DNA of 61,062 nt, counting the filler, from Dugesia japonica (Eukaryota): assembly GCA_001938525.1 (NCBI GenBank). It is 6 parts of 6 records of this genome, joined end to end, with 100 filler letters (N's around TTAATTAATTAA, not from the genome) between each part and the next. Parts side by side here need not be neighbours in the genome. Positions count along the whole stretch, not along the records: positions 17,635 to 25,972 come from MQRL01632850.1; 5 more parts are not named here. One strand, written 5' to 3'. The notes under the pieces were generated by a model. It saw only the letters and a program-made list of their open reading frames with translations. It had not been told where the DNA came from and made no database searches. Within the stretch, counting starts at the first letter, position 1; every line of letters starts with the position of its first letter. Shown here in pieces: positions 8,871 to 53,767 of this stretch. The translations under genes and the position numbers were made by a program.

Positions 8871-9041
8871 ATTTTGTTGGCCATGTACCAGGATCCGTGT
8901 AGTCGTATTCTAATGTTAATTTATTTTCACATTCCTTATTATTTTCATTTAAAGGGGCTTCAGCATCCATAAAAGATTCCCGATTCTCTGTAATGCANNN
9001 NNNNNNNNNNNNNNNNNNNNNNNNNNNNNNNNNNNNNNNNN

Positions 9042-9053
9042 TTAATTAATTAA
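9042..9053. other. Artificial contig-joining linker TTAATTAATTAA in a 100-nt N spacer (also 17579-17590, 26017-26028, 37130-37141, 51528-51539)
   Basis: Identical 12-mer with stops in all six frames, flanked by about 44 N on each side, five times. Confidence 0.95.
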
Positions 9054-9099
9054 NNNNNNNNNNNNNNNNNNNNNNNNNNNNNNNNNNNNNNNNNNNNGA

Positions 9100-17047: not shown

Positions 17048-17827
17048 GTTGAGATTTTATATTTAATAATATATTAACATAGTATATAATTTATGATTTA
17101 ATCTCATATAGATTTAAAATTTTAATTTTTGATGTAAATATGGAATTGTAAATGTCTATAATTTTGTTTTCTAATAATCTTTAAGATATTTATTGGGTTG
17201 TCTGGAAATTTCGTTTCGATTTGTAATGAAAATTCCAAAGTAACAGATTTACAGAGTTTTACATTTTTATATTAACAATTTTGCATTTTAATATTAACAA
17301 TTTTATAGATTAAAATATTATCAATTATTTTATTTTATTACCACATCCATATGACAAGAAAACAAAGAAAGGAAATTACTAAAAAAAACTTATGATTAAT
17401 ATCAAACGAAAAATGACTTCAGGAGTGTTAGACTTGGAAAACGAATTAAGCATAAAATATATATTCTAAACACAAAATGACATTGTAACAAATATTTATA
17501 GCTTTTGAAGAATCAGTTATGCAATAATGTCTGANNNNNNNNNNNNNNNNNNNNNNNNNNNNNNNNNNNNNNNNNNNNTTAATTAATTAANNNNNNNNNN
17601 NNNNNNNNNNNNNNNNNNNNNNNNNNNNNNNNNNCTTTATTTCTTTAATAATTTTGTTTTCATTACTTAAAAAATATTATTATTAAATTATTATTATTTA
17701 TTAAAAAATAAAAATCATTAAAATTTAAAATTAAAAGTATAAAAAAATTAACCAATAAAATTTCGATGAAATTTGAAGAATTAAGTAACAAAGATCTATT
17801 GTATTGAATATCTCAAGAAGCCAACAT

Positions 17828-17862: not shown

Positions 17863-20800
17863 CTTGTTACAAATAAATTTTATTTTGATCGAAGCCTTTT
17901 CTTATTTTTATGAAACATTTATACAAATTATAAATAATAATAGATATTCCTTGTTTTATTGACATTCTTCATTTCGATCACTTTGACTTATTTGCTGAGC
18001 ACATTTTACCTTAGCCATCTAATTCTTAATTATCTTCAATTATTGTATATTTTAATATTTAATCCATTTTTCGTTTTCTCGACAGCTTTTTACAACTTTA
18101 TTTTCTTTTTATTGTTTTATCCTAGATTTTGTTCGATATTTCTTACANTTTTAACTTCAGTTATTATTATTTTATAATCATTTCCTGATTATTTCATAGA
18201 TTAATATTTCTTTTATTTCTTATTATTTTCTTATTCATTTTCTTATTAACCTTTAATTTATTTCCTTCACTGTTTTTCATATTTCACAAAAGGCTGTTTC
18301 AGCCCAACAGGCTTGTTAATATTTATAATTAGTTAATTTACATTATTTATATTTTCAATACTAAATATGAGATTAATTGCTGATGTAATTGAATAAGTGA
18401 TATCTATATTCATATCAAATGGTTCATAATTATCTAAATTAATGTAAAATAATGTTTTGTTTTCGACTTTATAATAATATTTCTTTTTTATTTTTAAAAA
18501 GTTTTACAAGAGTATTTTCAATTAATGGGGGTTTAGTTGTTATTACTGTTTTATGTATGTTTTTTAAGACTTTTAATGTAAGAATTGTAGTTGAGTTAAT
18601 GTGTTGGGGTGAAACACCTGCTCTGAGAAGAAAAACAATGCGAATTGTTCAAACCAGAGAAATAACGAAGGGCGGGAGTAGAAAAGAAGGTTAATTAGAA
18701 ATATGTGACAAACATACCAAATAAAAAGAATAAAAAGAGTGGAAGAAAGGTAAACGCCAAATGAATCAAACCCTGACCAATAACAATAATTAAATAAAAT
18801 TAAAATTTAGTTAGAAGAAACAAGAAAATAATTGTTTGGAAAATAATTAATTAGACCAAAAATATTAATTAATTTTGAACAAAAAATAAATTAAAATTAG
18901 ACAATAAACTGTTTTTGGAAGATAGCGATGCTCAGGGAGATCACATAGACTTGCGATAAGAAAATTCGAAAACGTAAGGATCAGGGGCAATAAGATCTCA
19001 CAATTAGGAAACGTTAACATCATCAGGAAAGCCTGGGGAAGGTTTCGAAGATTAAGCCAATCATACCAGAAAAAGAAAATCAAACAAAGCTACAAAAATC
19101 ACATGGCGATTTAAAAATAGGTACCAATGAAAACTCTAAAACTCTCTGAAAAAATCTGAAAATTGGCACCATCGCAAATCAGAAGCAAGAAGTTTGAATT
19201 AAAAATAGAAATCTAATGGCGATGATGCCGAGTTGAATCGGCAAATCATATATAAACCCCCCAAATTTTAGATGTAATTACCCTCAAATTGTGAGAATTG
19301 TTAGTTATTATAACAACGTGATATTAATTTTCTCGAAAAAACGTTTGTGAAAAAACTCTCAGCAATTCACTATCACGATAAAAAGTGTAAGGCAGAAATC
19401 TCTGTCAATTATTTTTCATTTTGAACTTACTATGTAATTGTAGAAGAAAAATACTTTGTCGGTAAAACAGACAAAACTAATCGAAAAGCAGAAATCCCCA
19501 TTAAATTTAGTTGGAATTGATTCGTATTTTGTTTAAGCCCATTGCAGAAAGAATTAAGAAAAAGTGAGTAGCAGTTTATTTCTGATTATGTTATGTGATG
19601 ATTGGATCAATTAATAAAATTTGTTCAATATAAAATTGTCAATTAAACTTTATTTACAGGAAATTAGTGCTGTAATTTCAGTGAATCGATACCCAGTTAA
19701 TTTTGTCAACCTTATCAATGATTTTTATCATGAATCAGCCCATAATAATTGACATACCTTTACGTTAAGAAACTATTCACCATTCTCATAAGAAAATACC
19801 CTCTTTAATCAATGCCAAAATACACCTACAGCAAACCCATATTTTTAAACAGTGACTAATGCATTACTTTGAATTATGTGACAAACACTCCAACTCGCTA
19901 ACAGAAGTTATAAACACTCCAGTTAGTATGTACCTGTTATGCAATCCGTCAGCAACATCATGAGTAGCACTCGATGCATGTCTACAAGTGACTGTTTCCC
20001 TAATATAATGTTAATCAGGTAAAATGTGACCCGAACGGTATCGATAAAGGAATATAGTATCAGTATTACAACACCACATATACAAGCAATTGGATGATGA
20101 TTTGTTAATAATTATTGTTGGCATTACTGACCCACTCTCTAATAGTACTCAACTTGAATATTGCACTTTTGACGCTTTAATTGACTAATTGATCTTACTT
20201 TCACGTTGAATTTCGTGTTATTTTCCAATCAAGAATTCAACGATGATAAGTAGTACTGCTAACCTTACCATTACTATTATTATCATTATTCAGNTACTAC
20301 GATCGTTATCATCGCGGATATTAAAACTAGTATAATCGTTAATAACCTAATTAATATTGTTTTATTTATTATTCATTATTATTATCAATCGTAACATTAG
20401 TATCATCAAAATTCACAGCTAACATTATTATAATTATTAACACCCGCAATATCATTACGATCGCTAATCATTAACATTATTATTTTTATAAAAAATTTAC
20501 TAATGACATCGTTATTGTCCTATTTGGTATTAGCATTTTCATTATTATTAGCAATCGTTATCATTATTACTATTAATTTTATTATAGTTATCACTAAATA
20601 TTATTATTATTACTACTCGTATCATTATTAAAATTGTCGTTATGGTTAGGGTTAAAATAATTATCATTATTCTTATTAATATCACTGTTATTACTTTTAT
20701 TATTATTGTTATTTTTAATAAAATTATTAATTCTTTGTTACTACGAATTGTCGTTAGCTATACCGTCATTTCTAGTCGTGCTAATACATTAAGTTTTCTT

Positions 20801-20875
20801 TTGATCAGCGGTTTAAATATTTCAAGTGACAGCCGCAATTTTGTATTGTGATTTAGAATTCCAGTTTCAGTTGCG

Positions 20876-21060
20876 ATGATTGATCTCTTGATAAGGACTT
20901 TAAGATTGATTCGCAGAGAGAAGCGAAAGGCTCGACGGAAGCAACTCCTAGCCCACGTTCTCTCCAGGGGTGCCATTGAACACCATGACTAAACAGATTT
21001 GCGGTGTTTCGTTGAGATTTCCCCTTGGAGTATCCAGTTTATATAGACGGTGAGAAATGA
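20876..21060 (+). pseudogene. LTR cassette A (copy 1): small basic protein
   Basis: MIDLLIRTLRLIRREKRKARRKQLLAHVL....HD*TDLRCF aligns with the 52356 ORF MSDILSQTLKFICSERERVRRKQLIGPIL....PDKTDLRWF. Confidence 0.7.
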
Positions 21061-21174
21061 TCGCTAACTTTGTCACACTGTGTTTTGAATTAAATATATA
21101 TTATTTGACTGCTCTTTTACTTTTATGGATATTAACATATTACCGTTATGATTTTTCTTTATTTCAGTAGGCAA

Positions 21175-21580
21175 ATGGAATAGAAGTGGAAAACACTTCT
21201 TGATCGGCGCACGAGTAGGGTGATATTTAAAAGGTATCGAAATCCCATGATCGAAATGCTGGAGTACTGACAGACTACTCTAACTTGTCTAAGGAAGATG
21301 GGACGCTGCCGAATGCAGGGCCTTCTATGAATGGAATGGACCCGACCGGTCACAAGATGTGCTCTACACGGCTATCGCGTTTTCCCCAATTAATAATGAA
21401 GAGATCAGTACGACCAGTGAATGCAGATAAGGCCCTTCCGTGATTCTCATCTCGGCGGCTCATCTACCACCCTTCTCTAGATTGAGAGCCTTCATCAGTG
21501 ACACTCTTTGGGAGTTACGAAATACAGCGGGCGTTAGTAATAGCGAGAATGCCGACACCGCAACTGATAATAATTACTGA
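21175..21580 (+). pseudogene. LTR cassette B (copy 1)
   Basis: WKTLLDRRTSRVIF..HDRNAGVLTDYSNLS...RAFISDTLWELR aligns with the 52660 frame ERVLDRRTRRMIF..HNKDAGILADRTNLS...REFVTNLLWGIR. Acceptor tttcag ends 21167; AATAAA at 21623. Confidence 0.7.
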
Positions 21581-21784
21581 TTCTGTATATGGACTCCAGG
21601 ATTTTGTGTGTCGCTTAGTAATAATAAATTATAGGCATCTTATTTGTTGTAATTTTAAATTTTAGTCCAATCTTTCTTAATTAATTAATGTAACCAATTT
21701 TCGGCATAATGTTTTTCATAAGATCTTTTTGTTGGTATTTTTCACATTTCTTAATCTAAAGTTCAGTAATGTCTCTCTTTACAG

Positions 21785-22143
21785 TGCATTCTTTGCTAAA
21801 TAGACTAGCAGCTCTGACCAAGAAGGTAAGGGAAACCAGTGAAGACATCGAGATGTCTTGGAAACTCTATAGGTTAGCGAAGCGCAGATGGGAAGCTGAA
21901 ACGGCCTCAGCAAACGCTAAGGTAAAAAGGTACAAAGCCCAGTGCATCTCCTTTAAAAAAGAAGCTGAAGTGTCCCACTCACAAGAGAGATTTTAAAAAT
22001 CACAAGTCGAATCCATCGCCAAAATCATCCGGTCCCTGCATGACCCTCAAAATAAACTGGTCGCCGATGTTTTGACCTTGAGGAAGGCAATACCCCTCAA
22101 ACCCGTGATGGTTGACAAGGGTACCCAAACATCACGCCTTTGA
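21785..22143 (+). pseudogene. LTR cassette C (copy 1): coiled-coil protein ending in DKGTQT
   Basis: 44/70 identical residues to ORF 53265 by hand alignment; one in-frame TAA where copy 2 has TGG; acceptor tttacag|TG; AATAAA at 22167. Confidence 0.8.
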
Positions 22144-22281
22144 ATGATTAGAACTTGTAAATTATAAATAAAATTCTCTAATTAATTAGTCTTGTTTCAT
22201 GTGCTTATGTTTGTTATAAGAATTCCTTATGTAATCATTACTTGTAGCAATCCGATTATTGCTTAATCTCACTTTATTTCA

Positions 22282-22647
22282 ATGCCACATATCCGGTTCC
22301 TCTCTAGTCTGCGCAGATCCCATAGACTTATCCAGAAACTCCTGCTGGAACGCCATCTAAAACAACAAACTGAACGCGCTTTGCTTCATCACTTGGCGCA
22401 ACGTAATCGATTAATTAAAAAGCTTGATTTGATCGTAAAGAAACAAGAAGAGTCAAATAAACGCACCCAAAAGATTCTCACCAATAAGATCGTTTTCCTC
22501 AAAATATACATCGCCGATCTAGCTACTTGCCTAGAAATTGAGCAATGGTCGCCTTGTCGCAGTGAAGATGATGAGGCAGCATTTGATATGATGGACGACG
22601 AACCCTCCTAATGGCTTGATTCGGGGGCAGTCGGTTTAATAGAATAA
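22282..22647 (+). CDS. LTR cassette D (copy 1): basic N-terminus, coiled coil, acidic tail
   Basis: 109-aa ORF to 22611, with homology continuing past the stop to 22647. Shares LIVKK..E...RT..IL.NKI.FL..YI.DL and DDEAAFD...EP with 53768-54130. Confidence 0.75.
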
Positions 22648-25049
22648 ATTTCTTTTAAAACAATGTTTTAAATTTTGTTTTGGTTTTAGCAAAGGAAAAC
22701 TAATGAACTCAAATATAAAAGTATGCGAGTGTGAACCTCAAATATAGGCTGGAGGTCAACCGTCCATACCGAAAACCTAATAAGGGACATTAGATAAATT
22801 CTTAAAAAGGTCCCCTGAGGGCTGTTTTTCCCCATCCGTGTTTTTATACCACAAACTCAGTTGGGACCCCAACAAATGCATCGGTTAATATTGAAGTTTC
22901 GTTTTTTCAGACAAGTCTTTATTATTGTATTTGTTCTGTTCTTTAGCTAATTGTTTTAATAAAGCTCTTCTATCATCGTACATTTTTAAGCAGTTATTTG
23001 TTTTAATATTTTAAACTAAACAACAATCTATTATGCAGGTCTCGTGTAAATGCCTATTCCATGTTTTGCTTCTTTTATTTTTAGTATTTTGTCTAATATT
23101 AATTTCCTTCCTATTTCATTAATAGCTAACTTTACTGAATTTGGTAAACATGATTTATTAATTAAATTATTTATAAAATCATAAACTATTTTGCTTTGAT
23201 AAGGATTTAAATAAATACCTTTGCATTTAAAAGGTTTTAAAGCTTAAGCATTTCAATTAGCTACCTATTTTAACTACCTTAATTCTTCTTCAATTGTTTT
23301 TCTTTCTAAATCTGTCTTTTTTGCTTTTTCAGCTTTTGAAACAGCACTTTCAACTCCAGCAGCAATACCAGCTACACTAGATAATCTCCCACTTATTGCA
23401 GGACTTAATGATAGTAATGACAATATTCCGCCTTCCTTAATCTCTTCATTGTTATTGTTTGTTTAACTTTTTACCTACCTAATATTTTTTTTGTTTATTA
23501 AAACTTATTTAGATTTATTAAAATGAATTAGTTCACTTAATTGTTCTTCAGTAAGAGAATGAGTAAGAAAATTAGTAACGAATTATTAATTTGAAATAAA
23601 AATAAAACACTATTTAATAATTAAGTTTTACCAAATATTTTTACATGATTATTTATGGAGTCATCTGGTATTGGAAAGAATTTATTATTAATGAAAATGT
23701 TATTAGATGATGATTTAATGGATTATAATAATTTAATATTTTATTCAACAGCTATAAACCAAATTGAATTACAAATAATTAAAAGAAGGAATTGAAAATG
23801 AGTTAACTAAGAAAGCAATTAGAAATATATTTAAGAAAAAAGATTGAATAACAGAAGAAAAAAATACTCCATACAATATTGCTGAATTGTATAAAGAAAA
23901 TATAAATGAATCTGATATTGAAGATAAAGATGAGTATGTTATATATGATTATGATAATAAAAGTAAAACTTGTTAGGTTTATTTATTGGTTTCATTAAAA
24001 TAAACTAAAATAAGACTTTTCATTCAATACTTTATTTAAAATACAAATAATTCTTCTTTGAAATTCTTCTTGCTTTTTGAACGCTTCTTTTCCACACTTG
24101 CCTTTCCCAATTTATATTTTTAAATAATAATAAACTTAAACAAATTTATTATATTTATCAAAAATATATTTTGCAAACATAAAACTTTCGAATTTAAAAT
24201 AATTTAAAAAGAAACCGATAAATAAATATTTTTATAAAGCTTTAAAATTACATTTCAAATTTACATTTAACAATTTAAATTAATAAACATTGATTTTAAT
24301 AAAAACCTAATTGCATTAAATTTTAAAAATATTAAAAAATTTACGAATTACTAAAATTATCTAAAATATTTATATTTATATTTAAGAATATATTTAAAAA
24401 TCAAGATAGAATAATAGAAGAAATAAATAATCCTTATAATATTGCTGAATGGTATAAAGAAAATATAAATGAATCTGATATTGAAAATAAATATGATTAT
24501 GTTATAGATGATCATGATAATGAAAATAAAATTAATAGTAGCTTTTCTAATAAACCAGAATATACTATCTATTGTGATAATCTATAATAAAAGAATCTAG
24601 TTATATCTGATCATGTAAATATTAAAAATCAAGATATACAGTAATCATATTTCACTAGAGGTAGATATAATAACTGTAATGTAATTTATATATCTCAAAC
24701 TTATTATGCTTTAGATAAAATTTCATTTAAAAAACAATTTTAATTGTTTTATATTTTTCAAATAGTGGAAATAAAGATATGGTTTATCAAGATTTAATTA
24801 GTAATTTAGAACCAGATAAATTGTCATAAGATAATTTTATTAGAAATGATTAAAAAGATAAATAAAATTACTAGGATAATCTTTTTTAACCTTAAAAAAA
24901 ACATTTGACTTTATCTGACCAATATCTTGACTTTATACTGGAAATTTTTAAATTTATGTTTCGTCTTATAAACAATTAAATCTGCTTAATAGTCTTAAAA
25001 TTTAAGAAAATTGTGCTTTGTAAATGCAAAATATATCAATTATAACTGA

Positions 25050-25972: not shown

Positions 25973-26287
25973 NNNNNNNNNNNNNNNNNNNNNNNNNNNN
26001 NNNNNNNNNNNNNNNNTTAATTAATTAANNNNNNNNNNNNNNNNNNNNNNNNNNNNNNNNNNNNNNNNNNNNCAAATCACTTCTTATATTAATGTTAAAA
26101 CATAAAGTTAAAAACATAAAGTAAAAGTAAAGTTAAAACATTAAAAGAAAATTAATTTAATCAATAATTATTAATTATTATTTTAAATAAAAGTAAAACT
26201 CATGAAAAAAAAAAGTTTAATTATTATAATTTTCGTTAATTATAATAATTATTGATAATTTGCTAATTACGTAATCTCTAAAGCAGC

Positions 26288-27113
26288 AGGGTTCCANNNN
26301 NNNNNNNNNNNNNNTCCAGGAACACTTTGTAAATATATTTCCAAAAAAATCTTTATAAATATTTTTCGATTCTATTCGAATTCAATTTAAAATTATTTGT
26401 TGATTCCATTGATATTGACTTTAAAAAATGCATTTCCATTCTACTTTGTATGACTCAATTCCATTTCATTTTAATTAACTTTATCAGTACAAAGTATTGT
26501 TATACTACAGTTCTTATTAATATATAAAATTGGCAGGATATTCAAATTCTAAGATTTTAGTATTTGAGAGTTCCGTCAAAAATAGGTAAGATATCATCTC
26601 TACTTCGTCATGAAAGTTTTGAAATAAATCGTGGAAACTGTGCGTCTATAGCCTTAGACGGCTGGAAGAACACTGTTATTGGAGATAAGCACATTTCTAT
26701 AATTCTTTTTTTGTGATGAGCCTGTTTTCATTCAAAGCCATATCGTAGAGTAAGTCTCAGCAGAAAATATTTGTTTTCTTATTGAAGAAACATTAGAATT
26801 CCTTGATTAATATGGTATTATTGTTATTGGGGCAATAACTGATAATATCCGAAATATGATTTCCGCAGTGAACAAATTAAATAGTAAAAGGCCTACAATA
26901 CCGCCATTGAGATGTGTGTCTTATGTCTGCAATCAGATGGTTAAAGATCTTTATAGAAATATTATTTGTTTAAAAGTTACTTTCAAAATACTAAAAGAAT
27001 ATATAAATGAACGAAAAATTTCAAGATTTTTAGCCATTTTGATAAAATGAAAAAAAGAATATCCCAATAATGATCATCTCGGAAAAATCAACATGGCTGT
27101 TGTTTATCTAAAG
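26288..27113 (+). mobile_element. hAT (DUF659-type) transposase relic
   Basis: IALDGWKN..., IVIGAITDNIRNM (TDNAxNM) and LRCVSYVCNQMVKD (CxAHxLNL); CAGGGTTCC terminus at 26288. Confidence 0.75.
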
Positions 27114-34519: not shown

Positions 34520-35330
34520 TGGTAAGGTTATTCTGAAGGTCTTCTATATTCTCCAAAGACCGCCCTCAAAGAAAGTATTCCATCACTCAAAACAGATTAA
34601 AATAAAGCGGCACAAGGTATGGTAAGTATGATGGATGCGGAAATATCTCAATTCCTTTAAGACAGTTTCCGTTGATTTTCGTAAGAAAATCTCTATTTCT
34701 AACAAAACTTTCTTTTGGTTGATTAAATGAAAATATTTTGCTTTCATAAATTTGTGAACTCTTTCTAACTGCGTTGTGAAAATATTGAAGCTTATACTTT
34801 GATCATAAAGTAGACGTTTGAAAACAAGGATACCATCATAATTCCAAAAAACAAAAATCATGTCATTTTTCAAATTGAATGACTTTAGTATAAAAAGTAA
34901 GTGATTCATTTGAGAATAGACATTACCTATTATTTGTTGAGATTGCTTAACAACATACAACTTTGTTTATTGCAATAACTCTTTCAAAATACCGTTTGTC
35001 CAATGGATTATTCAATAACATTTTACATATTTAAAGCTGTTTGGTCGCCTGAACTTCCTCCAGTCCAAAAATACATTCTAGGAGCTCTATATATTTTATC
35101 AATTGTTTGCAGATGGCAATGAATGGTTGATTTTGAAGATTTAAGGCTATTGCACTGTAGTCACAACTATTTGATGAAATTGCACACTAGTCGACTTGAC
35201 TTGTAGAGAAAGGTGAATCGGATTCTATATACTCTTGCTGCAGCTTCTTATAATTGAGACCGTTTATTAGAGTCTGGTTTGCATTTGAAGGTTGTGTCAT
35301 CGTTGTTTAACTTAACAAANNNNNNNNNNN
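34520..35330 (-). pseudogene. Mariner transposase relic
   Basis: VFWNYDGILVF..L, QLERVH..MKAKY.HLINQKKVLL, HPSYLPYLVP.YFNLF (HPPYSPDLAPSDFHLF). Confidence 0.75.
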
Positions 35331-37075: not shown

Positions 37076-37185
37076 ATATATATATNNNNNNNNNNNNNNN
37101 NNNNNNNNNNNNNNNNNNNNNNNNNNNNNTTAATTAATTAANNNNNNNNNNNNNNNNNNNNNNNNNNNNNNNNNNNNNNNNNNNN

Positions 37186-39695
37186 TTAAACCAGCTTCTT
37201 TTATACGTTTCAAAACATTGTCAATTCTCTTATAGTGTTCTTTAATAGTTTCGGAAAAACTAAAATATCATCTAAGTAAACCCCTGCTTCCTTCCAATTT
37301 AATGGACCTAAAACCTTATTCATCAATTTTTGAAAAGTAGCAGGGGCAGCTGCGATTCTAAAGGGCATTCTATTAAAATAATATTGTGCACCTTTTGTCG
37401 AAAATGCAGTTTTACATTTTGAGTCATCTGTTAATTCTACTTGATAGTAAGCATTACNNNNNNNNNNNNNNNNNNNNNNNNNNNNNNNNNNNNNNNNNNN
37501 NNNNATTTCTTCAGTGTTTGGAATAGGAAAAATTGGTCTTTCTGTAACTTCATTTAACAATCTATACTCTAAGCAAAGTCGTATTTCATCATTGTCTCCT
37601 TTTTTTACGCAAACCAAAGGAGCATTCCAAGGGAAGTCACATTTACTTATAATTCCATTTATTTCCATTTCTTTTATATTTATCTCAATTTTATCTATTA
37701 AATGATAAGGTTGACGCCTATGATTTATTGCAATTGGTTTACAATTTGTTAATATTGCATGTCTTACAATATTAGTTTTTCCAATATCCCATTTATGTTT
37801 CATTATAATGCTTTCATATTTTTCTAAATTCGTCAAAATCATTTTATCTTTAATATTTTTAATTTTTAATGTTTTCGGTTTAAATTTAATTACATTAACA
37901 GATTCTTTATTAATGGTGAGTTTTATATTAAATTTATTCAATAGATTAATTCCACAAATAACATGTGGTGAGATTTCTTTAGCAACATAAAAACAAATAT
38001 TCTCCATTTTTTCATTAAGCTTTACATTTAAATATACTTTTCCTACACTTTTTTAAAGAACTATTATTCGCACATTTGACATTTATATCAGAATCAATTA
38101 TTGAAACATTTCCTATTCTATTTAATAATTCATATTTAATTACACTAATTTTAGCTCCAGTATCAAGTAAACATGATGTAACAATATTATTAATNNNNNN
38201 NNNNNNNNNNNNNNNNNNNNNNNNNNNNNNNNNNNNNNNNNNNNNNNNNNNNNNNNNNNNNNNNNNNNNNNNNNNNNNNNNNNNNNNNNNNNNNNNNNNN
38301 NNNNNNNNNNNNNNTTACAAAGTTATTTTTATTATCAACAATTATATCAAGCATAACATCATCACACAAATTATTTTCAAGCAATTCAGTATCATACACA
38401 CATTTACAATCATTATCAATCATAAAATTATTGCTCAAATCAAATCTTACATTTTTAATGAATCGCCCCGACAATTTCCTCTCTTGGAAGGGCTTTGGCT
38501 TTTCGGAATTGATCTGTCATAGTTCTGTCATCATCTGTCATCAAATCATCTGAATGTTCATTGTATGCTGCAACATTTTATTGACGATAATCTCTTTTCA
38601 TATCCCGAATCTCATAGCATTGATGTTTAAAATGTCCAGTTCTGTTACACTGGAAACATTTTACATTTGGACAATTAATTCTGACATGTCCTTCTTCTTT
38701 GAATGCCCAACATCGTTTAGATCTTTGTGGAAAATTATTTTCTGTTCTCTTAAATCCTCTTCCGTCAAAACGATTAATGGGTGCATTTGAATTAAAATAT
38801 CTTCTGGAATTCGAATATCGGTTTCTGTTGTTTTCCACTAAATTGTTCCTTTTAAATGTGACTGGTCGATTTGGCTGAAAATCATTAAATTTGGCAGTTG
38901 TTGCATAATTCTTCTTTTCGATTTAACTGCTGCAACATTGACTTCTAGATTAAGCTCCTTCTTGATACTGTACATTTTTGAAATAATATTTTTCATTTCT
39001 TCATTTGTTCTTGATACTCGAATTTTTATTTCTTTTTTAACATCTATATCTTCAACAGCATTTTGTAAAAGAAAACTGACCAGATTTTCATTTGTCAAGT
39101 TATGCCTGATTACATTCTCTGCAAGACGATCAATTTTGTTAAAAAACAAATTTATGGATTCGTTTCCTTTTCGATAATTTAATGCAGATAATAAATCTTT
39201 ACCGATATTTGCTGGTTCTTCAAAAGCTTTTCGGCATCTTTGGGCATAATCTTCAATTGAACCATCCATGGATTCATATCTTTTAACAGCATTTGAGGAA
39301 AGAAATGCTTTTATAAATGTTCTTTGAACAGGTCCTTGAGCCATTGTAAGCTCATAAAATCTTGCTATCTCGATTAAAAATTCTTCCACGCAGTCTCCAA
39401 TATCGAATGTATTTGGAGTTGGAACAAAGGAATTGAGCATATGCCCTTGGGTGGTCGCCATATTAGAAGTCTGTTTCATAACCATAATATTTATTAATAT
39501 GACAATATAAAAGGAGGAATAAATATATATGTAACTATGATTTGAGCAATCAACATACCTCAATCAGCAAACAAACATTGATCTGTTATGCAACACACAA
39601 AATATTTGAACTCTTTGTCAAATATTAATTATGCAGCATACAGTTTTAATAAGCCTTTATAATAAATATAAGATATCCTCACAGTAATTATGACA
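37186..39695 (-). mobile_element. Gypsy/Ty3 LTR retrotransposon, 5' half (LTR about 39461-39695, PBS, gag, protease, RT), truncated by contig join
   Basis: PBS TGGCGACCA overlapping the gag ATG; two CCHC-type knuckles (first degenerate; second CFQCNRTGHFKHQC); protease LLDTGA at about 38160; RT motifs WNAPLVCVKK, KTAFST, MPF.IAAAPATFQ, YLDD; frameshifts. Confidence 0.92.
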
Positions 39696-41346: not shown

Positions 41347-42048
41347 ATGGTTTCAAATGATCTGTTGATTTGTCCAAATAATCTTTGTAAAAAGGTTTTT
41401 AAAAATAAATCAGGATTATCAAGTCATATTAGATCAAATTGTTATCGTTTAGATAGAACAAGAATTATGTCTTGTGAAATTTGTAAAATATTTTTTATGA
41501 GAGGAAATAAACGAAAAACCCATTTCTATTTAAAGAAAAATAAAAAAATGGCTATTAAATCATTATTCGATGAATTACCTGGTGAAGAAGCAATTGAATA
41601 TTATCCAGAAATTCAGCGTATTTTTAGAATTTATAAAAACTATGAAATTAAATATTTAAAAGAAAATAAAGTTGAATTAACTAGAAATATTGAAGAGTTA
41701 GAAAGACCAGTAAAAATGATTAATGAATTTCAATTTGAAATCTTGCAAATTGAAACAAAGTATTTTAATTATGGAAAAAGGGTTTTTATTCAAATGAGTG
41801 TAAATAGTAATTATAATAAAGAAGTTAAAGAAATTAGAATTGCAAGTGAAGTTGAAGAAAAAGTTAATGATATTTTAAATCAACTTCAAAGATTTATTGA
41901 AGCTGAATTTGGGTGGAATTTAAATTATATTGTTTATTTTAAAATTAAACTTTCAACTCATAAACAGATTAATGAATTAAAAACCGTTGGTAATAAAAAA
42001 TTATATTATCTTTATGATGATTTTATAGGACCCTTTTGGTTTGTTTGA
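41347..42048 (+). CDS. C2H2-zinc-finger protein with a C-terminal segment resembling the GSGW region of Polinton PolB N-termini
   Basis: CPNNLCKKVFKNKSGLSSHIR; FIEAEFGWNLNYIVYFKIKL. Confidence 0.55.
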   Translation: MVSNDLLICPNNLCKKVFKNKSGLSSHIRSNCYRLDRTRIMSCEICKIFFMRGNKRKTHFYLKKNKKMAIKSLFDELPGEEAIEYYPEIQRIFRIYKNYEIKYLKENKVELTRNIEELERPVKMINEFQFEILQIETKYFNYGKRVFIQMSVNSNYNKEVKEIRIASEVEEKVNDILNQLQRFIEAEFGWNLNYIVYFKIKLSTHKQINELKTVGNKKLYYLYDDFIGPFWFV

Positions 42049-42173
42049 ATTTTTATTTGAAGAGTATTTTATACTTGTTTTAAATTCTACGAACAACAGA
42101 ATATAGAAGTTTGAAGGATGAGTATAAAGAAACCTGTAAAGATTGGGGATTTTTTATTATTTATTATTAGAAA

Positions 42174-43180
42174 ATGGAAACAACAAAAATTAATCTTAAT
42201 AATAATATTAATTTTCAACATTTATTTTTGATAAATGATGTTTTGAGAATTTCACCCTCATCTGGAACAATTAATAATTTAATGTCTTCTGGAGATATAA
42301 CTTTTCAATCTTCAAATCCATTAGACATTTATAATTCAATGTTATATTTTAAAGTTAAATTAGAATTTGGTGCGGCTAACGCTCATAAAGATAAAATAAA
42401 TTTAGAAAATAATTGGTTTCCAAGTTTATTCAAAACAATGAGATTAACTTTAGGATCTTCAGATGAAGAAATAATTAATGATCCAGGAATTTCATCAACT
42501 GCTACTTTAAAATTAATGAATCTAGAACTACATATCCCAGAATGTAGATTAGTTAAAAAAATGGAAGTAAATCTTTTAGAAAGAATTAACACAAATAAAT
42601 CTATTCAAGTTTCATTTTTAAATAGAATTACNNNNAAAACAACTTTAGATTCAGGAAATTATTATTCAGTTAAACTGAGTAATTTAACTTATAAACCAAG
42701 ATATATATTTATTGAAATAAAAGATTCGGAAATTTCATATCAAAAGAATAATAATTTATTTATTCAACAAAATAGTAAAACTGTAAAAATAAAAGAAGGG
42801 ACTGTTGAAAAAGAAGTTACAACAAAACATTATCTTAAAAGTATTCAAGTACAATTAAACAATACATATTATTTTATAAATGAATGTAAATTTAATATTA
42901 ATAATAATGAAATGATTTTTCCATAGTTAAATTATGTAAATTGTTGTAAAGACTTTTTAACAGAACCACAATTATCTCTTTAAGAATTTTGGGATTTGTA
43001 TCCAATCTTTTGTTCTGATGTTAGTTCCCAGGATCATAAATTAAATATAAATACTGTAGATATAACTTTACATATAACTAAAGATACTGATTTTAAACGG
43101 TATTTATGTTAGTGTATTTTAGAAGAAAAACATATTGAAATGAAATTATCAAATAGTAAAATTGTAATGATTGAAAATAA
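42174..43180 (+). pseudogene. Double-jelly-roll major capsid protein (hexon-like), apparently internally deleted
   Basis: LENNWFPSLF..MRL, LELHIP, KPRYIFI, LKSIQVQLNNTYY and, past the stop at 42926, EFWDLYPIFCSDVSSQ, typical of Polinton/adintovirus MCP. Confidence 0.75.
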
Positions 43181-43243
43181 ACGAGGTGACACTTTTTATT
43201 TAGAGTTTAAGTTTAAAAATAAAATATTTAGATTTTAAATAAA

Positions 43244-44521
43244 ATGGATAAAAATAAATATATTTTTGAAAATTGTAAGAAAATATTACTTAGAAAAAAT
43301 AAAGCTAGACATTTAAGAATTTGTTTAAAGAAAACTGGAGGTGATTTACAATCTTCTAAATTAACTTCAACAATTTTAAAACCATTTACTTGGGAAAAGT
43401 ATCCAGGTGAAAGACATTTGTTTAAACATAATTATACTGGCCCCGGAACAAGATTAGATTCTGAAGGTAAACCAAAACCTGGAGAAGAACCAATCAATAG
43501 AGTAGATGAAGCAGCTTTTAAACATGATTTATCTTATAAAAATGAAAATATTAGAGATAGACATTTAGCTNNNNNNNNNNNNNNNNNNNNNNNNNNNNNN
43601 NNNCCTAATCCTAGTATTTCAGAAAAAATACAAAGAAGTTTAGTAAAATTAGCAATGAAAGGTAAAATCGTTTTAGGTGCTGGCCCTATTATTAAAAGCA
43701 AAGAAAGTAATTTTCAAAATAAAGAAATATTAGCAAACGAACTTCACAAAGAATATAGAAAACCAAAATATTTTCTAAAAGTAACAATAAAAGAAAACAA
43801 TAATACTTAGGGTTGTGATATTATTGATATGGTTAAAAAATCAACTGTGGGTTTTAGATATATTTTAGTTTGTATTGATTTATATTCTAGATTTGGTTTT
43901 TGCATACCAATGAAAAATAAAAACCAAGAATCATTAAAAGATGCTTATGAAAATATATTTGAAGAAAATAATCGAATTCCTGATTATATCTGGTTTGACA
44001 AAGAATCAGCTATTAGATCAAAGTACTTTGATAAATGTATTAAAGAAAATGAAAATAATTTGTATCATACTGAAAACGAAGGTAAATCAGTTTTTGCTGA
44101 AAGATTTATTAGAACTCTAAAAAATAAAATGTGGAAAGATTTTACATTAACAGGAAACCAAAAATGGAATAAAAACTTGTTAGATAAAATTGTAAATGAT
44201 TATAATAATACAATTCATAGTTCTATAAAAACAACCCCAAAAGAAGCTAGTGAAAATCCAGAAAAAATAAAAGAAATAATCGAAGATCATAACCATGAAA
44301 ATGATTCAATATAATTTAAACAGAAATTTAAAATTGAAGATAGAGTTAGATTATTTAAATATAAATTTGAAAAAGGTTTTACAGCTAAATGGACAAGTGA
44401 AATATTTGTTGTAACAAAAGTACATAAAACAAAACCATTTACTTATGAAATTAGTGATTTAGAAAACGAAAAGATCTTGGATAAATTTTATAATAATGAA
44501 CTTCAGAAAACTGTTTTATAA
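43244..44521 (+). pseudogene. Parvovirus-type phospholipase A2 domain fused in frame to rve (DDE) integrase
   Basis: HNYTGPGT (Ca loop), PINRVDEAAFKHDLSY (HD catalytic); same frame continues to ANELHK..NNT*GCDIIDM, CIDLYSRF, IWFDKES, AERFIRTLK, YNNTIHSSIK, FEKGFTAKWTSEIF; two nonsense codons (43808, 44312). Confidence 0.88.
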
Positions 44522-45018
44522 ATTTAAAATTAATAAATTAAAATGAGTGAGCCTGAAGGAACCCATTCTTTTGATTTTCTTTTTAAAGGTGTTTTAAATG
44601 AAGAAACAAAAAAAGCTTTAAAAGAAGATATTAAACAAGAATTAGAAGAAGAAATTAAACAAGAATTAAAAGAAGAAAATAAATACTTAAAGAAAACACT
44701 ATCACCCATCAATAAAAAAACTCCACCGGAATATTTTTGGAAGTGGATAATTGTATGTCATCTGAAGAAGGATATGAAGAAATAGCAATATTAACCAACT
44801 ATTTTAAAAATTTTGATTTTGCTAATATGGATCGATATAGTATAGGTATTTTTGATTTAATAGTAATTAAACTAAAAGATGAATGTATGAGGGGTTCTAT
44901 AGATCTCTTCGATGTAAAAGAATTCTTTGATAAAAAAATAANNNNNNNNNNNNNNNNNNNNNNNNNNNNNNNNNNNNNNNNNNNNNNNNNNAAATCTTAA
45001 TTTTTTTATTAAATAAAA

Positions 45019-45741
45019 ATGTCTCAATTAATCGGTAAAACTTCAACATTGTTAATTTGGAATAAAAATAAAATATCTTTAATAATAAAATCTTTCCCTC
45101 TAATTTTACATTATTAATAATTGGTTCTTCTGGATCTGGTAAAAATGTTTTATTAATGAAAATGTTATTAACTCCTAGTTTTTTAGATTATGATACTTTG
45201 ATAATTTATTCTACAACTATAAATCAATTTGAATTACAATTACTTTATCATGGTTTTGAAAATGGATTAACAAAAGAAGATATTATTTTTATTTTTGAAC
45301 ATCAAAATATAATTTCAAATTCTTTAATATTCCCATTAGAAAAATGTTTCCATAAAAATACTCAAGATAAATACTTGGGATAAATTATCTAAGGATAAAA
45401 AGAATTTTATAGTTTTCGATGATGTTGTTAATGAAAAAAATCAAGACGTTCAAACAAGTTATTTTACTAGAGGAAGACGTGTAAATTGCAACGTAATTTA
45501 TATTTCACAAACTTATTTCAGTTTGGATAAAAACTCTATTAGAAATAATTCCAACTGTTTTATATTTTTTAAATTAAATAAAACTGATAAAGATAATGCT
45601 TATTATGATTTATTTAGTAATATATTTTCAAGTAAAATGGAATATGATTATGAAGTTAATTTACATTGGAAAACAAAGTATAATTATTACTATTTAGATA
45701 GAGAAGCTGGAGTTTTAATGGAAGATTTATTTGAAGAGTGA
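45019..45741 (+). pseudogene. A32/FtsK-like genome packaging ATPase
   Basis: Walker A IIGSSGSGKN (about 45118), Walker B IVFDD, RGRRVNCNVIYISQTYF, SIRNNSN; frameshifts. Confidence 0.88.
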
Positions 45742-45858
45742 AAATATCCCACTGGGAAACTGTGGTATTCTACTTCAACTTCAACTTTATGTTAAAATCT
45801 TATATCATTTCTTTTTCTTAAATAATATAATTTTTGGTATATTATTTTTACAAATAAA

Positions 45859-46405
45859 ATGTCTTCAAGAATTAATTGATTTGATAAATTCAAAGAAATT
45901 TAAATCTGTAAAAATTAAAGGAAACAACTATTGGATTGGAAATAAAGTTAAAGAAGAACTAAAAAAGAAAATGACAACTAGTAAAGAACATGAAGGTGGA
46001 TTTGCTTTCCTCGCAGCAATACCAGCTATAATTGCTGGTTTAGCTTCTACAGCTGGAATTGCAACTGGAATTACATCAACTATTAATAATTCAAGAGATG
46101 CAATTAAAAAGCAAAAAGAAACCGAATTAGTAGAATTACAGAAAAAAGAATTTATTGACATTCATGACCAAAGGGAATTAGAAAATAAAATTAAAAAAGA
46201 AAATGAAATTGAATTATTAGATAAAGATATTGCTTAAAAGAAACAAGGAAGTGGACTTTACTTAAAACCTTATTAAGGAAGTTCAATTCATAAATATTTA
46301 AAAAATATTTTAGATAATTCAGAATTGAAAATGATAACTAAAAACTTTAAGAAAGGAGTACAAGTTAAAATAAAAGGTGATGGTTTATATTTAAAACCTT
46401 TTTAA
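45859..46405 (+). pseudogene. Polinton core/membrane-penetration-like protein
   Basis: EGG followed by amphipathic FAFLAAIPAIIAGLASTAGIATGI; downstream GSGLYLKPY and GDGLYLKPF repeats past stops. Confidence 0.65.
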
Positions 46406-47150
46406 AATGGATAGTGAACAAATAACAGAAAGAATAAAACTTTTGAAAGATTTAATTAAAGCTCAAGATAATTATGATAATTTATGTACTGGTAATGTAA
46501 TTGAATCAAGAACTTTACAAAATACTTGAACTATTCAACAACAACCTACTATTAAAGCAATTGAAAATCCCAGAGGGTCCCATACAAACTCATTTGAAAA
46601 AAGAATACCATTCTTTCCTAAAATTAATTTAAATATTAAAAATTTATCATCATTAATTACACCAACATTTGAAATAGAAAATATTGATAATAAAAACTTT
46701 CTAAAGATAAGTTATCNNNNNNNNNNNNTATATTTATTTGAAGAAGATGGAAAGAAATACTTTTTATCTAAAGAAGAAGTAATACCATATTCTAAAGAAG
46801 TAACGAATTTAATTTTGGGAAATGGAAGTAATGATTCAGAAGCAATTGATATTTATTTAAAAAAATTAAAGATTATATTTCCTACTAATTCTAAATATCG
46901 TGATTTATTAACTAGGAAAAAAGAAGTCAATTATTATTAAACCAAGAGTTAATTACTCAAGAAAAATATAATGTTTATAAAAATAAATACTAAAAATAAA
47001 TTTAATTTTACTAAAAAAGAATTATTTTATCTTTCAATAAATATTAACCAAATTTTAGAGAAACATAAACCAATAGAAAGAATTACTTTAATTTTACCAG
47101 CAAATATTTATATTGATAATATTACAATTTCAAATTAATCTTTTAAGAAA

Positions 47151-49964
47151 ATGTCTGAGTTTGAAGAGAATTAACTAACACAAACGAAGAGTGAGAATCA
47201 AAATCCCAAAGGGTCCCATAAATATCCTGATTTAAACGAATATATTTATTCATATTTTGAATATGCAATTAAAAATCAAAAAAACACTATAGAAGATTTA
47301 ACCCTTAACCGCCCAGAAAGCTTTTTATACCAAAACCACCCAGTAGTGTCTAACAGATACTACATAGAAAATCATTTAAATTATAAAAAAAAATAATAAA
47401 ATTTATTTTTATTACAGAGAAGAACACTGTTTGCATTGAATGTTTTTGTAGAATGTTCAAGACAAACATTTTGATTACATGTATTACAACATTGTTTTGA
47501 ATTCCTTGCAATTTTACACGGGCATATGTGACACCTTTTTTTTTACTGCGGATTCTTTTACGATTGAATCTTCAAACTGCTGTTGACTTGTACTTGCAAG
47601 CTGAACTCAGTTAACCCTTTTTTCTCTCGTCTCTGAATGTGAGGACTGACTAATTCGGCTGCTATTTATCGTAGAAAACGTTTTTTCTGTGCTCTTTTCT
47701 TTCCTTCTTTCCATCTAGGATACAATCGTTTTCATATTACAAAAGATGCAATCCTAACAATATCAAGCATATTTTGTAAAAACGCTACGGGCCATCTATT
47801 TGTTTTGTGGCGAGTTGAGTATTCATGTGCTAACTGATCCATTGTATCAACACCACCTTTTGTTTTATTATAATAAATATTAATTTCCGATATTTTTTTG
47901 TTGTTAGCATCAAATTGATTGCTATGGTGCATAGTAGATCATAAAATAACAGCTCTGTTCTTTTTTGGAACATTTGAAACTAAGGTTATTTTTTCAGAAT
48001 CCAAAGATATTAGTTTCAATATTCTGTCCTCTAATTGGCTGAAAATTGTATGGAATACAGCGTTTTTTTTTCTAAGAGTACCGACCATTGTCAGACCATT
48101 ATGAAGTAATGATTGTGCAATCTCAAAGCTTGTAAAATAGTTATCAAATGTAATATTTCTATGCGTTTCATAATATGGTTCACATAATGTAAGTACAACA
48201 TGATGAGATAAATTTTCTGTCTTACTCTGTTCAAGTTTTCCAAGGTATGGTAAACCAGCAAGAGGATAACTTGTTTCACTATCACAAATACACCATACCT
48301 TCATACCATACTTGTCAGGCTTAGATAGCAAGTATTGTTTAAATGATACTCTGCCTTTGAAAGAAATAAGTTGTTCGTCAATCGATAAGTTTTCACCAGG
48401 TAAATAGAACTTTTGAAGCTTAATATTGATATCGGTCAAAATATCTCTGATAGGCACCAATTTATCTTTTGATCTTCTTTGAGACTTTGTAGCTTTATTA
48501 TCAAATCTTAAAAAACGTTGGATATCCGCAAATCTATCTTTACCCATTGTAGCACGAAAAATAGGACAACCAAGCATTAAATCCCAATATTCTGTGAAAT
48601 CCACATTATTATGTTTGTTGACAGCACTAGCAATTAGTAAACCAAAAAATGCTTGCAGCTCAATGGCATCTATTTGNNNNNNNNNNNNNNNNNNNNNNNN
48701 NNNNNNNNNNNNNNNNNNNNNNNNNNNNNNNNNNNNNNNNNNNNNNNNNNNNNNNNNNNNNNNNNNNNNNNNNNNNNNNNNNNNNNNNNNNNNNNNNNNN
48801 NNNNNNNNNNNNNNNNNNNNNNNNNNNNNNNNNNNNNNNNNNNNNNNNNNNNNNNNNNNNNNNNNNNNNNNNNNNNNNNNNNNNNNTTACCTAAATATTG
48901 GACAATTGATTTTGAAACATGTTTCTCTTCTGTTGGGAAATATTCATTGTCACTGCATGTTTGTTCATCACTTTTCTCTGATCCAACCTCTGTAAAATTG
49001 TCTTCAATCTCACTTTCTACTTCTGGGATAAAATCTTGGTTGTCACTGTCAGAATTATCATCATGATTTAAGTCCTGTAATACAGTTAGCAGCTCCTTCT
49101 CAGTTACTACCATATTATTAATAATTTCTAAATGTCTAAATTATTTGATGTTAAGTAATAAGATTTGACTTACATTTTTTACAATATTTATTGAAATTAT
49201 ACTTATAGTTATTTGTGTAAGTAAATTACATCACCAAGATTATTTTATTACTGTTAACCTTATAACACTATATGTTGTGTCTATCAGACACACCTAGGTC
49301 TTTGTGTCACATTTATAACCTTTTAATAATTGCAAAAGTAATAATTTGATTTAAATGACTTCAATTAGTAATTTTGGTTGACAAGACTGTAGTAATAAAT
49401 TAGATGAAGTTTACTTTGTATACATTCAAAACTTTAGATGTACTATGAAAACGAAATTTAAAAAGTGCCTCTGAGTCACTACTGGTCGGTTAAGGGTTAA
49501 AAGAAAAATTATCAGACTTAAGAATTGTTGATTTTGAATCAGATCTTTATTTCATTGATGATAAAATTAACTATTATAAAAAGATTTATAAAAGATGGTC
49601 ACGATTAGATACCTCGATTAGATTTACTGAAATATTTATTGTAACAGTTGTTAGAATAACTGGCATTATATTAATTTCTTTAGAAACCTTTGATGTAGGA
49701 GGATTAATTCCAATTATTTTAACAAGTGTAGTTTCTTGTATTCTAGTAATTGGTACTTTGAATTCATCTTTAATAAAAGCAAAAAAGAATAACTATAAAA
49801 ATTTAATTCATGAATTAGAAACTGTTAAAAATAAGTTATTTTTATTCCAACAAAAAACTTTAAGTGATGGTCTTTTAACAGATGAAGAAATATCAATAAG
49901 CAAAAATATGGTAAAACAAGTAAAAGATTTAATTTCCCATGAAAAATTGAAAATGATTTATTAA
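47151..49964 (+). pseudogene. Two-TM Polinton/adintovirus protein (gasderminX-like), interrupted by piggyBac
   Basis: Removing 47302-49500 restores one frame: ...KYPDLNE..IEDLKEKLSDLR..YYKKIYKRW..TM-TM..KTLSDGLLTDEEI (one early stop near the start). Confidence 0.7.
47302..49496 (-). mobile_element. Full-length (2195-bp) but frameshifted piggyBac transposon
   Basis: TTAA TSDs at 47298-47301 and 49497-49500; 15-bp TIRs CCCTTAACCGCCCAG / CCCTTAACCGACCAG; transposase motifs IDEQL, KPDKYGMK, TFDNYFTS, YNKTKGGVDTMDQ, RWP and a Cys-rich tail. Confidence 0.96.
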
Positions 49965-50049
49965 AAAAACTTGAAGAACAAATCGAAAATCAACAGAAAA
50001 TAATAAATAAATTAAAGAGCTAACTCAAACGAAGAGGAAATGAATTGAT

Positions 50050-50358
50050 TGTGCCCACGGGCACAGGTTTTATATATTTACATTTTAGAAACTGGTGACT
50101 GCAGTAACCACTTTTAGAAATTAACTCAAGCGTTAACCGCTTTTGATTTAAAATTTTTAGATTTAAGAAACTGGTGACTGCAGTAACCACTTTATATTTT
50201 AAGATAAGAATTNGCGAACCANGGTTCGTTTTTTTAATTTTATATTAGAATAAGTAAGAAATAATTTCTATTTTGAATTCCTCATTTTTACCCTTTAAAA
50301 TCCCAGAGGGTTCCATCCTCACAAATTACAATTTAGAAACTGGTGACCGCGGTAACCA
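50050..50358. repeat. Cluster of short palindromes between convergent Polinton genes
   Basis: TGGTGACTGCAGTAACCA x2 (50093, 50172), TGGTGACCGCGGTAACCA (50341), TGTGCCC-AC-GGGCACA (50050), CGAACC-AN-GGTTCG, AAGCG-TTAAC-CGCTT. Confidence 0.85.
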
Positions 50359-50419
50359 CTTTTTTATTTTTATATTAAATTACAATTTAATTTTTGTTTT
50401 AATTTATCTAACCTTAAAT

Positions 50420-51483
50420 GCCACTCACTACAATTAAAACATTTAAATTTTTTTCCATAAGGCTAAGTTCTTACACCATTATCCTCAATTAATCTATTAT
50501 CATCATAAACAGTTAAAGCAATCTTTTTTTGCTCAACTAATTCTATTTCGTGTTTATTTGATTTTAAACTATAATTAGTTCCATAAATATTTTCTTTTGA
50601 GTTTAAAGCTTTATCGAATTCTTTCATACCTATTTCATTAAACTTTGAAACTACTTTATGTCTTTTATCTAATTTATTGTCAAACTCATAAGCATAACTT
50701 TTAGCTTTTATAAAATCACATTTAACTATTTCGTTATTAGATTTTTCATCTTTCATTTGAAATAAATTATTTCCTAATAAACTTTCTACTTTTGTTAAAT
50801 TATTTCTACCTATTATTTCTATAAAAATTGAATCTGTGTCACTATAATGAATTTTATATTTATTTGGAATATTTACATCTAACTGATTATAAATAAAATC
50901 ATAAATAACTTCCTTTGCATATTCTAATATAGTAAAACCAATGTTGGGAAACTTGTTATATTTTAAATTTTATATTTTAGATTGTCTTAAATGAATAGCT
51001 GCTGTTTCTGCGATTCCAGTTTCTGTACATGTAAATATTTTAATAGATCTAAGTTTATTTTTAATGCAAATTTCTGATAATCTCTATCACTTCCAACTAT
51101 TTCTACATTAAACCTTTTCTAATATCTCCTACTGTCTTTCCATAAAAAGCATTATTTAATAATTTAAAGAAATAATCACCAAACACATCGTTTGTTCTTT
51201 TAGATGTGTTTTTTTGATCGATATTAAATTGAATATAATCCTTTAACCAAGGTTTTATTGGAAGAATCATTTTTTGTTGGATCCTTATATTCTTGAATGT
51301 ATTTTTTTAATTTTCATTCCTAGTTTTAAATATAAATCTAATGTACTTCCTAAAACTATATAATTTTCTTTATCAAATTGATTCAAGGTTAATTTAATAT
51401 TTTTCTTGAATAATTTCTTATTAAATGATAATTGATAAGGAGCTAACATTTCTTGAGTTATATTTATTCTATCTGGAGCTAAT
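50420..51483 (-). pseudogene. Protein-primed family B DNA polymerase, C-terminal half
   Basis: FKLLNNAFYGKT (motif B), GFTILEYAKEVIYDFIY, HYSDTDSIF (motif C), KAKSY, KIAL..YDDNR. Confidence 0.92.
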
Positions 51484-52355: not shown

Positions 52356-52541
52356 ATGTCAGACATCTTAAGTCAAACTTTAAAATTCATTTGTAGTGAA
52401 AGGGAACGGGTTCGGCGAAAGCAACTGATCGGTCCTATTTTAGCACCATATCGGATTCTGTCGCCTGACAAAACCGATCTGCGATGGTTTGAAGATTTAT
52501 TCCCACTCCAAACTAATGCTGACTTAGATCAGACATATTGA
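52356..52541 (+). CDS. LTR cassette A (copy 2)
   Basis: Acceptor ttttag ends 52345, ATG 52356, stop 52541, AATAAA 52562; homologous to 20876. Confidence 0.7.
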   Translation: MSDILSQTLKFICSERERVRRKQLIGPILAPYRILSPDKTDLRWFEDLFPLQTNADLDQTY

Positions 52542-52659
52542 TTTTCTAACTGTTAGTCTTAAATAAAAACATTAACTTAGCTAATTTTTTTTCTTTTTTG
52601 TATTGAATTTGTTCGAAAACTACCAATTTATAAATTTATATTTAAGTTTATGCTTTTAG

Positions 52660-53615: not shown

Positions 53616-53767
53616 CAGTATTTGTTAAATCGGTTTTGGTGTGAATAAAATTATTTAACTTGAGTAGACTGATCAGTGTTCCTTAACCAATTTTATTATA
53701 TTGATTTTATTGACTATTCAAAGTCATTTATATTTGTTTAACTCTTAAATTATCATTTCTATTTCAG

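Follow-up and report, generated by a model that had tools for sequence, protein, structure and literature searches.

A probable solo LTR of Dugesia japonica with four accessory cassettes, one of which ends in a candidate LC8-binding motif

The window analysed here, a stretch of 61,062 nucleotides from Dugesia japonica (GCA_001938525.1), consists of short, AT-rich scaffolds of eukaryotic origin with 100-base linkers of N's between them. These linkers are identical, with the form N44-TTAATTAATTAA-N44 (8998–9097, 17535–17634, 25973–26072, 37086–37185 and 51484–51583), and since they are scaffold joins, neighbourhood across them is meaningless. On one scaffold lies, on the plus strand, a 4,273-bp element (copy 1, 18602–22874) that starts with TGTTGGGGT and ends with ACCCCAACA, carries TG...CA ends with a 9-bp inverted repeat, and is flanked on the left (18598–18601) and on the right (22875–22878) by the target-site duplication AATG. 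A second copy on the same strand (copy 2, 51584–54375) belongs to a distant subfamily; its 5' part and left end are lost at a scaffold edge, and it likewise ends with ACCCCAACA. The window contains TGTTGGGG at one place and CCCCAACA at two, all of them ends of copies 1 and 2. DNA identity between the copies is 77% over the last 180 bases, a conserved terminal box (22694–22874 in copy 1, 54192–54375 in copy 2), and 55–60% over the cassettes described below, B not exceeding shuffled sequence, whereas the spacers, among them an ATT-rich low-complexity stretch of 23% GC at 20251–20860, align at shuffle level. Within the terminal box, a 16-base box is the same in both copies (22809–22824 and 54307–54322) and could form a short hairpin.

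The element family is dispersed, old and high-copy. In sequencing run X1, 3,071 contigs fall on the element, many of them on the ATT repeat, with 112 at least 99% alike and 1,608 below 90%; one contig crosses the element's ends. Depth is present in 30 of 30 bins and peaks over the terminal box, where it is deepest, and over 18844–19284, with the provision that these depths are not copy numbers. As X1 coverage is deepest at 22804–22835, the ATT repeat excepted, the 16-base box is common to many more elements than the cassettes are. RNA is scarce: three runs, of which 6%, 25% and 25% were read, gave 48, 178 and 37 reads on the element, mostly on the ATT repeat.

Each of the two copies holds four cassettes, A to D, with a pyrimidine-rich, acceptor-like site ahead of each and a GC content of 43–47% as against 24–30% in the spacers. 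A poly(A) signal stands within 43 bases of the cassette end in all eight cases (AATAAA in seven, ATTAAA in one); in shuffled sequence such a signal turns up at 5–27% per site, a figure from which any joint probability is optimistic because the cassette ends were picked by eye. Cassette A of copy 1 (20871–21094, plus strand as for all that follow) has its acceptor, a basic helical ORF from an ATG at 20876, a stop at 20990 and ATTAAA at 21089–21094, while that of copy 2 (52356–52541) is open over 61 codons from its ATG, and the ratio pN/pS between the two is 0.50 (49 codons). Both encode a short basic helix (20876–21046; 52356–52541) with RRKQL, and this helix could carry a segment for nuclear localisation or RNA binding. 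Cassette B is broken in copy 1 (21168–21628, acceptor present, AATAAA at 21623–21628) as well as in copy 2 (52660–52998), and the copies share 0.47 identity versus 0.46 after shuffling, with similarity in short blocks only, one of 17 residues reaching an E value of 0.005.

Constraint is strongest in cassette D, whose pN/pS is 0.27 over 92 codons. In copy 1 (22283–22648, AATAAA at 22643–22648) it is an open, helical frame with an acidic tail whose acceptor has been lost, and seven of seven X1 contigs differ from copy 1 at this acceptor site; in copy 2 (53768–54145, AATAAA at 54140–54145) the phase-1 acceptor is preserved and the frame carries one frameshift and one stop. At its end (22330–22608; 53816–54094) it displays a conserved acidic-aromatic motif, W...DDEAAFD, possibly another host-binding motif. 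A search for homologues of cassette D yielded 14 candidates, none of which scored. In both copies, the frames of cassettes C and D start in one and the same phase. Upstream, a candidate TATA box lies at 19249–19256 (plus strand), in a stretch that, by its depth in run X1, is common to many related contigs, and a few RNA reads of run X12 cover 18991–19284. Candidate splice donors near 19387, 19564 and 20019 may mark a leader; as an alternative, the terminal box of copy 2 contains a donor-like site.

Cassette C of copy 1 (21785–22143) consists of a phase-1 acceptor, a long helix and a tail with an LC8-type motif, and its frame is broken by an in-frame stop at 21994–21996, 40 codons 5' of the motif, at a codon that is open in copy 2. 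The segment 22105–22143 translates on the plus strand as VMVDKGTQTSRL followed by a stop and contains the 8-mer VDKGTQTS (22111–22134, positions −5 to +2), with DKGTQT at 22114–22131; an AATAAA 24 bases past the stop (22167–22172) aligns with that of copy 2. Cassette C of copy 2 (53266–53615), also behind a phase-1 acceptor, is open over 115 codons up to a final TSRS and stop at 53615, and its homologous hexamer, DKSTPT (53586–53603), has a proline at the centre of the anchor. The two proteins are 57% identical, with ends that are homologous and in register. The TQT anchor (−1 to +1) is present in one of the two copies; the other has TPT in its place. With a stop ahead of the motif in copy 1 and a proline within it in copy 2, neither assembled copy encodes a TQT protein, and both copies are dead at the LC8 site. 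The proline of copy 2 reflects either decay after insertion or loss in the subfamily to which copy 2 belongs.

The sequence-only reading had described copy 1 as ending in DKGTQT, which is true of the letters and fails for the protein on account of the upstream stop; its DKSTPT at the end of copy 2 is reproduced by translation, and the ancestral DKSTQT that it deduced is an extrapolation from two copies and no observation. The Pro-rich linker that it placed ahead of the motif shrinks to two prolines, at −11 and −8, in both copies. The coiled coil that it proposed corresponds to a predicted long helix: AlphaFold2, run on the copy 2 protein with a two-sequence alignment, predicts a helix from residue 2 to 98 and a non-helical tail from 99 to 115 (pLDDT of 61, then 54, over the two final blocks), and the best heptad register of the helix places hydrophobic residues at 64% of the a and d positions. 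A homodimer prediction for the same protein scored 0.01, which counts neither for nor against dimerisation. The predicted succession of a helix and a non-helical, accessible tail is the usual layout of an LC8 client.

An altered genetic code as the cause of the stop in copy 1 was rejected, since the codon in question also terminates cassette D, in copy 1 as in copy 2, and at the position of the stop copy 2 has an open frame. A weak tblastn match of the tail at 59477–59521 (E value 0.26) was likewise discarded, as it lies in a region without homology to either copy.

Synonymous sites are saturated between the copies, and against this background the pN/pS of cassette C is 0.33 (114 codons). Selection is detectable behind the stop of copy 1 (45 codons; Fisher p = 0.002), as it is over the final 16 codons of the cassette (p = 0.003), and in the motif both copies have D, K, T, T, S and R, each encoded with a changed third base. 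Hence, the tail was once translated and constrained in both lineages, and the stop in copy 1 is later decay. Ahead of the first methionine, 13 of 22 residues are identical, seven of them via synonymous changes; since these 22 codons are conserved and the opening phase is shared, cassette C requires an upstream exon. Judged by its pattern of substitution, cassette C is a formerly constrained coding exon.

In run X1, depth falls from 1510 over the helix of cassette C to 376 over the bin with the motif (80% alignment threshold), and many relatives thus part from it within the tail or beyond. At the stop codon of copy 1, one X1 contig has an open frame, and the 40 variant rows listed, out of 632, include none in the motif codons or the stop codon, where a missing row proves nothing. 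RNA over the cassette C helix appears in one of the three runs, X12, at a depth below two per direction; in the 6–25% read of each of the three runs, depth over the motif bin was zero and no spliced reads joining cassettes were seen.

How good an LC8 site is the tail of copy 1? According to the rules as summarised by Jespersen 2019 (PMC6607443), a T-Q-T anchor is accompanied by a polar residue at −4, a large basic one at −3, a non-bulky one at −2 and, at +2, preferably a strand-breaking P, D or E rather than a hydrophobic residue, without internal proline. VDKGTQTS agrees with them at −4 (D), −3 (K), −2 (G), −1, 0 and +1 and has no internal proline; the serine at +2, outside the favoured P, D and E, is the sole departure. 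Counted by eye in Table S4 of that paper, serine at +2 occurs in 9 of 79 binders and 3 of 32 non-binders, KxTQT in 15 of 79 binders and none of the 32 non-binders, DKxTQT in 7 of 79 binders, and proline at position 0, as in copy 2, in 0 of 79. The same count finds the full TQT in 17 of 32 non-binders, so that the anchor alone is insufficient.

Among the KxTQT-type clients in that table are SLC9A2 (REKGTQTS, a listed binder two positions off the 8-mer of copy 1), NEK9 (HSKGTQTA), Bim (CDKSTQTP), rabies P (EDKSTQTT) and HPV E4 (PMC6607443 Table S4). Copy 1 shares with this type the anchor, the lysine at −3, the acid at −4 and a tail that is predicted to be non-helical; unlike here, where a predicted site lies behind a stop and the sister copy has a proline at position 0, the table's clients are expressed and shown by experiment. 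With assumed priors of 0.2–5%, the rough odds that the tail is an LC8 site come to 0.44–0.95 if it is scored as DKxTQT and 0.09–0.71 if scored as KxTQT. CCL2 and CCL7 are secreted proteins. Their peptides are listed as LC8 binders all the same (PMC6607443), and a competent peptide therefore need not be a client.

The most serious competitor of the LC8 reading holds that cassette C is a real exon whose TQT is incidental, a Thr/Ser-rich tail having come to spell the LC8 consensus in one decayed copy without any involvement of LC8, and we consider this quite conceivable, if short of probable. It is favoured by the occurrence of TQT in one copy out of two, and by a motif conservation that equals the cassette average (6 of 8 residues identical as against 57% cassette-wide; binomial p = 0.26). 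Moreover, the stops in the cassettes imply roughly 5–7% decay per site per copy, corresponding to a chance replacement in roughly 12–15% of codons, which is enough for one lost glutamine or, less probably, one gained glutamine. In 100 block shuffles of the window, read in six frames, KxTQT arose in 34, yet DKxTQT arose in one, and when the eight cassette frames of both copies (728 residues) were shuffled by residue 100,000 times, the respective numbers were 568 and 33. DKxTQT within the last 20 residues of any cassette was obtained in 6 of 100,000 shuffles, which speaks against coincidence, as does the retention of D, K and both threonines in the other subfamily across a saturated synonymous distance. 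KxTQT is thus ordinary at the scale of the window and DKxTQT at a coding tail is not, though the motif was chosen from many windows. Among the points against the LC8 reading are that neither copy is intact, that motif conservation is average, that +2 is a serine and that no gag-pol is attached to the element.

As to the element itself, the TG...CA ends with a short inverted repeat, a 4-bp duplication around copy 1 (4–6 bp being expected) and a dispersed multicopy family are what an LTR would present. Within the window, neither copy has a gag, pol, gag-pol, primer-binding site or polypurine tract joined to it, and inspection by eye found no primer-binding site 3' of copy 2. In our judgement the element is very probably the solo LTR of a high-copy animal LTR retrotransposon, decayed and probably of Gypsy type, its class and orientation being read from the ends alone; it may already be in Repbase or in the earlier literature. 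We regard it as unlikely that the unit is instead a non-autonomous cut-and-paste element with Ginger-like ends or a multicopy host gene cluster, with the LC8 motif then belonging to a passenger gene. The lack of an attached gag, pol and primer-binding site in the window is in keeping with such an origin, and TGT...ACA ends with 4-bp duplications are also known from Ginger transposons; however, the terminal inverted repeats of DNA transposons of Ginger type exceed the mere 9 bp present here, and a host cluster does not sit well with the perfect duplication that flanks a unit of 4.3 kb, nor with relatives that number in the hundreds, diverged and in decay.

Starting from the solo LTR, we propose that the four accessory exons inside it would serve as alternative last exons behind a shared leader, a layout that is visible in the sequence and from which splicing would follow, each exon bringing its own splice acceptor and poly(A) signal. 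Intact members would splice the leader to exon C, whose product would be a helix of about 97 residues that runs into a short disordered tail. Where members of the copy 1 subfamily are intact, the DKxTQT of this tail would be bound by host LC8, and since an LC8 dimer holds two tails in parallel, a weak coiled coil would be clamped as a dimer, which is the usual role of LC8. That members of the family with an intact cassette produce an accessory coiled coil which LC8 clamps as a dimer in this manner is, in our estimate, an evenly balanced proposition; once the LTR nature of the element is granted, LC8 binding of the tail and the dimer clamp become slightly favoured. The weakest step, drawn by analogy, concerns purpose: the likeliest task of the dimer lies in the life cycle of the element itself, where it would regulate or scaffold element RNA or particles, and we give this less than even chances. 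The LC8-binding accessory protein of the sequence-only reading hence stays reasonable for the family, at about even chances, and falls for the two copies as assembled, with their stop and proline. Its suggestions of dynein recruitment, apoptosis and piRNA silencing were borrowed from other LC8 clients and find no support here.

Rather improbable, finally, is that C acts as a decoy or adaptor which draws LC8 away from pro-apoptotic clients or a PIWI co-transcriptional silencing complex, or which tethers particles to dynein, since a single site per chain and scarce RNA fit a clamp better than a sponge, LC8 is an abundant hub, a client in its groove competes with the dynein intermediate chain and does not bridge to it, and Panoramix is, to our knowledge, confined to flies; for it speak the dimerisation of the fly PICTS complex by LC8 via the TQT sites of Panoramix (PMC7861614), the use of LC8 by foamy virus Gag in capsid traffic (PMC3705263) and the anti-apoptotic domains carried by planarian Burro elements (PMC6431247, PMC13465017), as far as these sources were accessible.

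The proposed clamp has its model in Panoramix, whose dimer is stabilised by LC8 (PMC7861614, in the part consulted). Foamy virus Gag is likewise a retroelement protein that binds LC8; unlike cassette C with its candidate TQT site, it requires a coiled coil for this, and the available portion of the text states no TQT site (PMC3705263). Cer1 CERV of C. elegans also is a novel accessory protein made from a spliced mRNA of an LTR retrotransposon, with the difference that the abstract names it neither as an LC8 client nor as LTR-encoded (PMC10309623). Both are likened to cassette C by description, not by homology. Extra ORFs of LTR retrotransposons mostly sit between pol and the 3' LTR, according to the section seen (PMC7264820). 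Accessory coding sequence within the LTR is found in MMTV (sag/naf), a betaretrovirus with one ORF region as opposed to the four acceptor and poly(A) units here, and no kinship in sequence or fold is claimed (PMC9412291, as excerpted).

Comparable in setting are the giant planarian Gypsy elements Burro and GYPSM1 together with GLT2, a planarian element named in Repbase, which, in the passages available, likewise have multi-kb LTRs and accessory ORFs and reside in AT-rich animal genomes rich in Maverick and Gypsy elements (PMC6431247, PMC8532177). Inspected by eye on its opposite strand, the GLT2 probe (PMC8532177 Table S1) resembles cassettes C and D in having an AT-rich spacer, a same-phase acceptor and a helical frame that is open; neither of the two 20-base GLT2 primers matches the window at up to three mismatches. 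The extra domains described for Burro, namely BIR, BCL2, MATH and Env, are internal (PMC6431247, as far as seen), in contrast to the cassettes, in which a Pfam scan detected none of these four. The domain scan of the window covered 14 plus 78 frames, the latter picked among 128 open frames of at least 62 codons.

Better supported than the LC8 site is the 4.3-kb LTR-like unit, which houses four orphan accessory exons that all bring an acceptor and a poly(A) signal of their own and of which three are under clear purifying selection between distant subfamilies. If this is right, any solo LTR of the family could in principle code for protein, and transcription of the element from its 5' LTR has to get past four poly(A) signals. 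LC8-binding viral proteins are common, and one more would be unremarkable. A bolder version, in which a giant LTR stores four accessory genes as mutually exclusive last exons and its TQT coiled coil enters the LC8 hub, blunting PIWI-type silencing or cell death in stem cells, is a long shot; were it true, thousands of solo LTRs would each be a small accessory-gene operon, with a transposon-encoded LC8 client as counter-defence. Flies need LC8 for silencing guided by piRNAs, and for this reason the link deserves attention. In the portions of the literature on LC8 and retrotransposons that were at hand we found no transposon-encoded TQT client of LC8, and in the literature compared, outside of which lie the likeliest descriptions and Repbase, no report of LTRs, whether giant or solo, that contain ORFs or alternative last exons.

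Homologues of cassette C were sought by several routes. Word-index protein searches returned 3 candidates of near length and 2,030 among longer proteins, of which none scored; phmmer against 1.84 billion representatives gave no match, and 72 pattern matches in viral contigs and 318 in metagenome contigs were not confirmed. Pfam gave at best an E value of 0.06, PDB sequences nothing meaningful, and recognition in the ESM Atlas (1485) was under the level at which matches count. Because these collections are mostly prokaryotic, such empty searches do not amount to novelty.

The remainder of the window is strewn with transposon debris of mariner, hAT, piggyBac, Gypsy reverse transcriptase and Polinton-like origin, and searches for Rfam families and tRNAs gave 0 matches in each case. 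A stretch at 56400–59660 is A-rich (50–55% A), contains tandem arrays at 58542–58869 and a decayed coiled-coil frame at 59043–59255, and ends in CCCAACA at 59660; it is perhaps another large LTR-type repeat, and blastn and tblastx detected no homology between it and copies 1 and 2. Decayed gag and reverse transcriptase of Gypsy type occupy 37210–39563 on the minus strand of a separate scaffold, and nothing ties them to the LTR family. Transposase fragments of mariner, hAT (DUF659) and piggyBac are found at 956–1264, 26811–27047, 34586–34966 and 47735–48676. Polinton- or adintovirus-like debris extends over 23034–24900, 41347–47400 and 49494–51480, with two Pfam matches; beyond these two, we take its frames to represent an integrase, a PLA2-like domain, a capsid-like and a polymerase-like protein.
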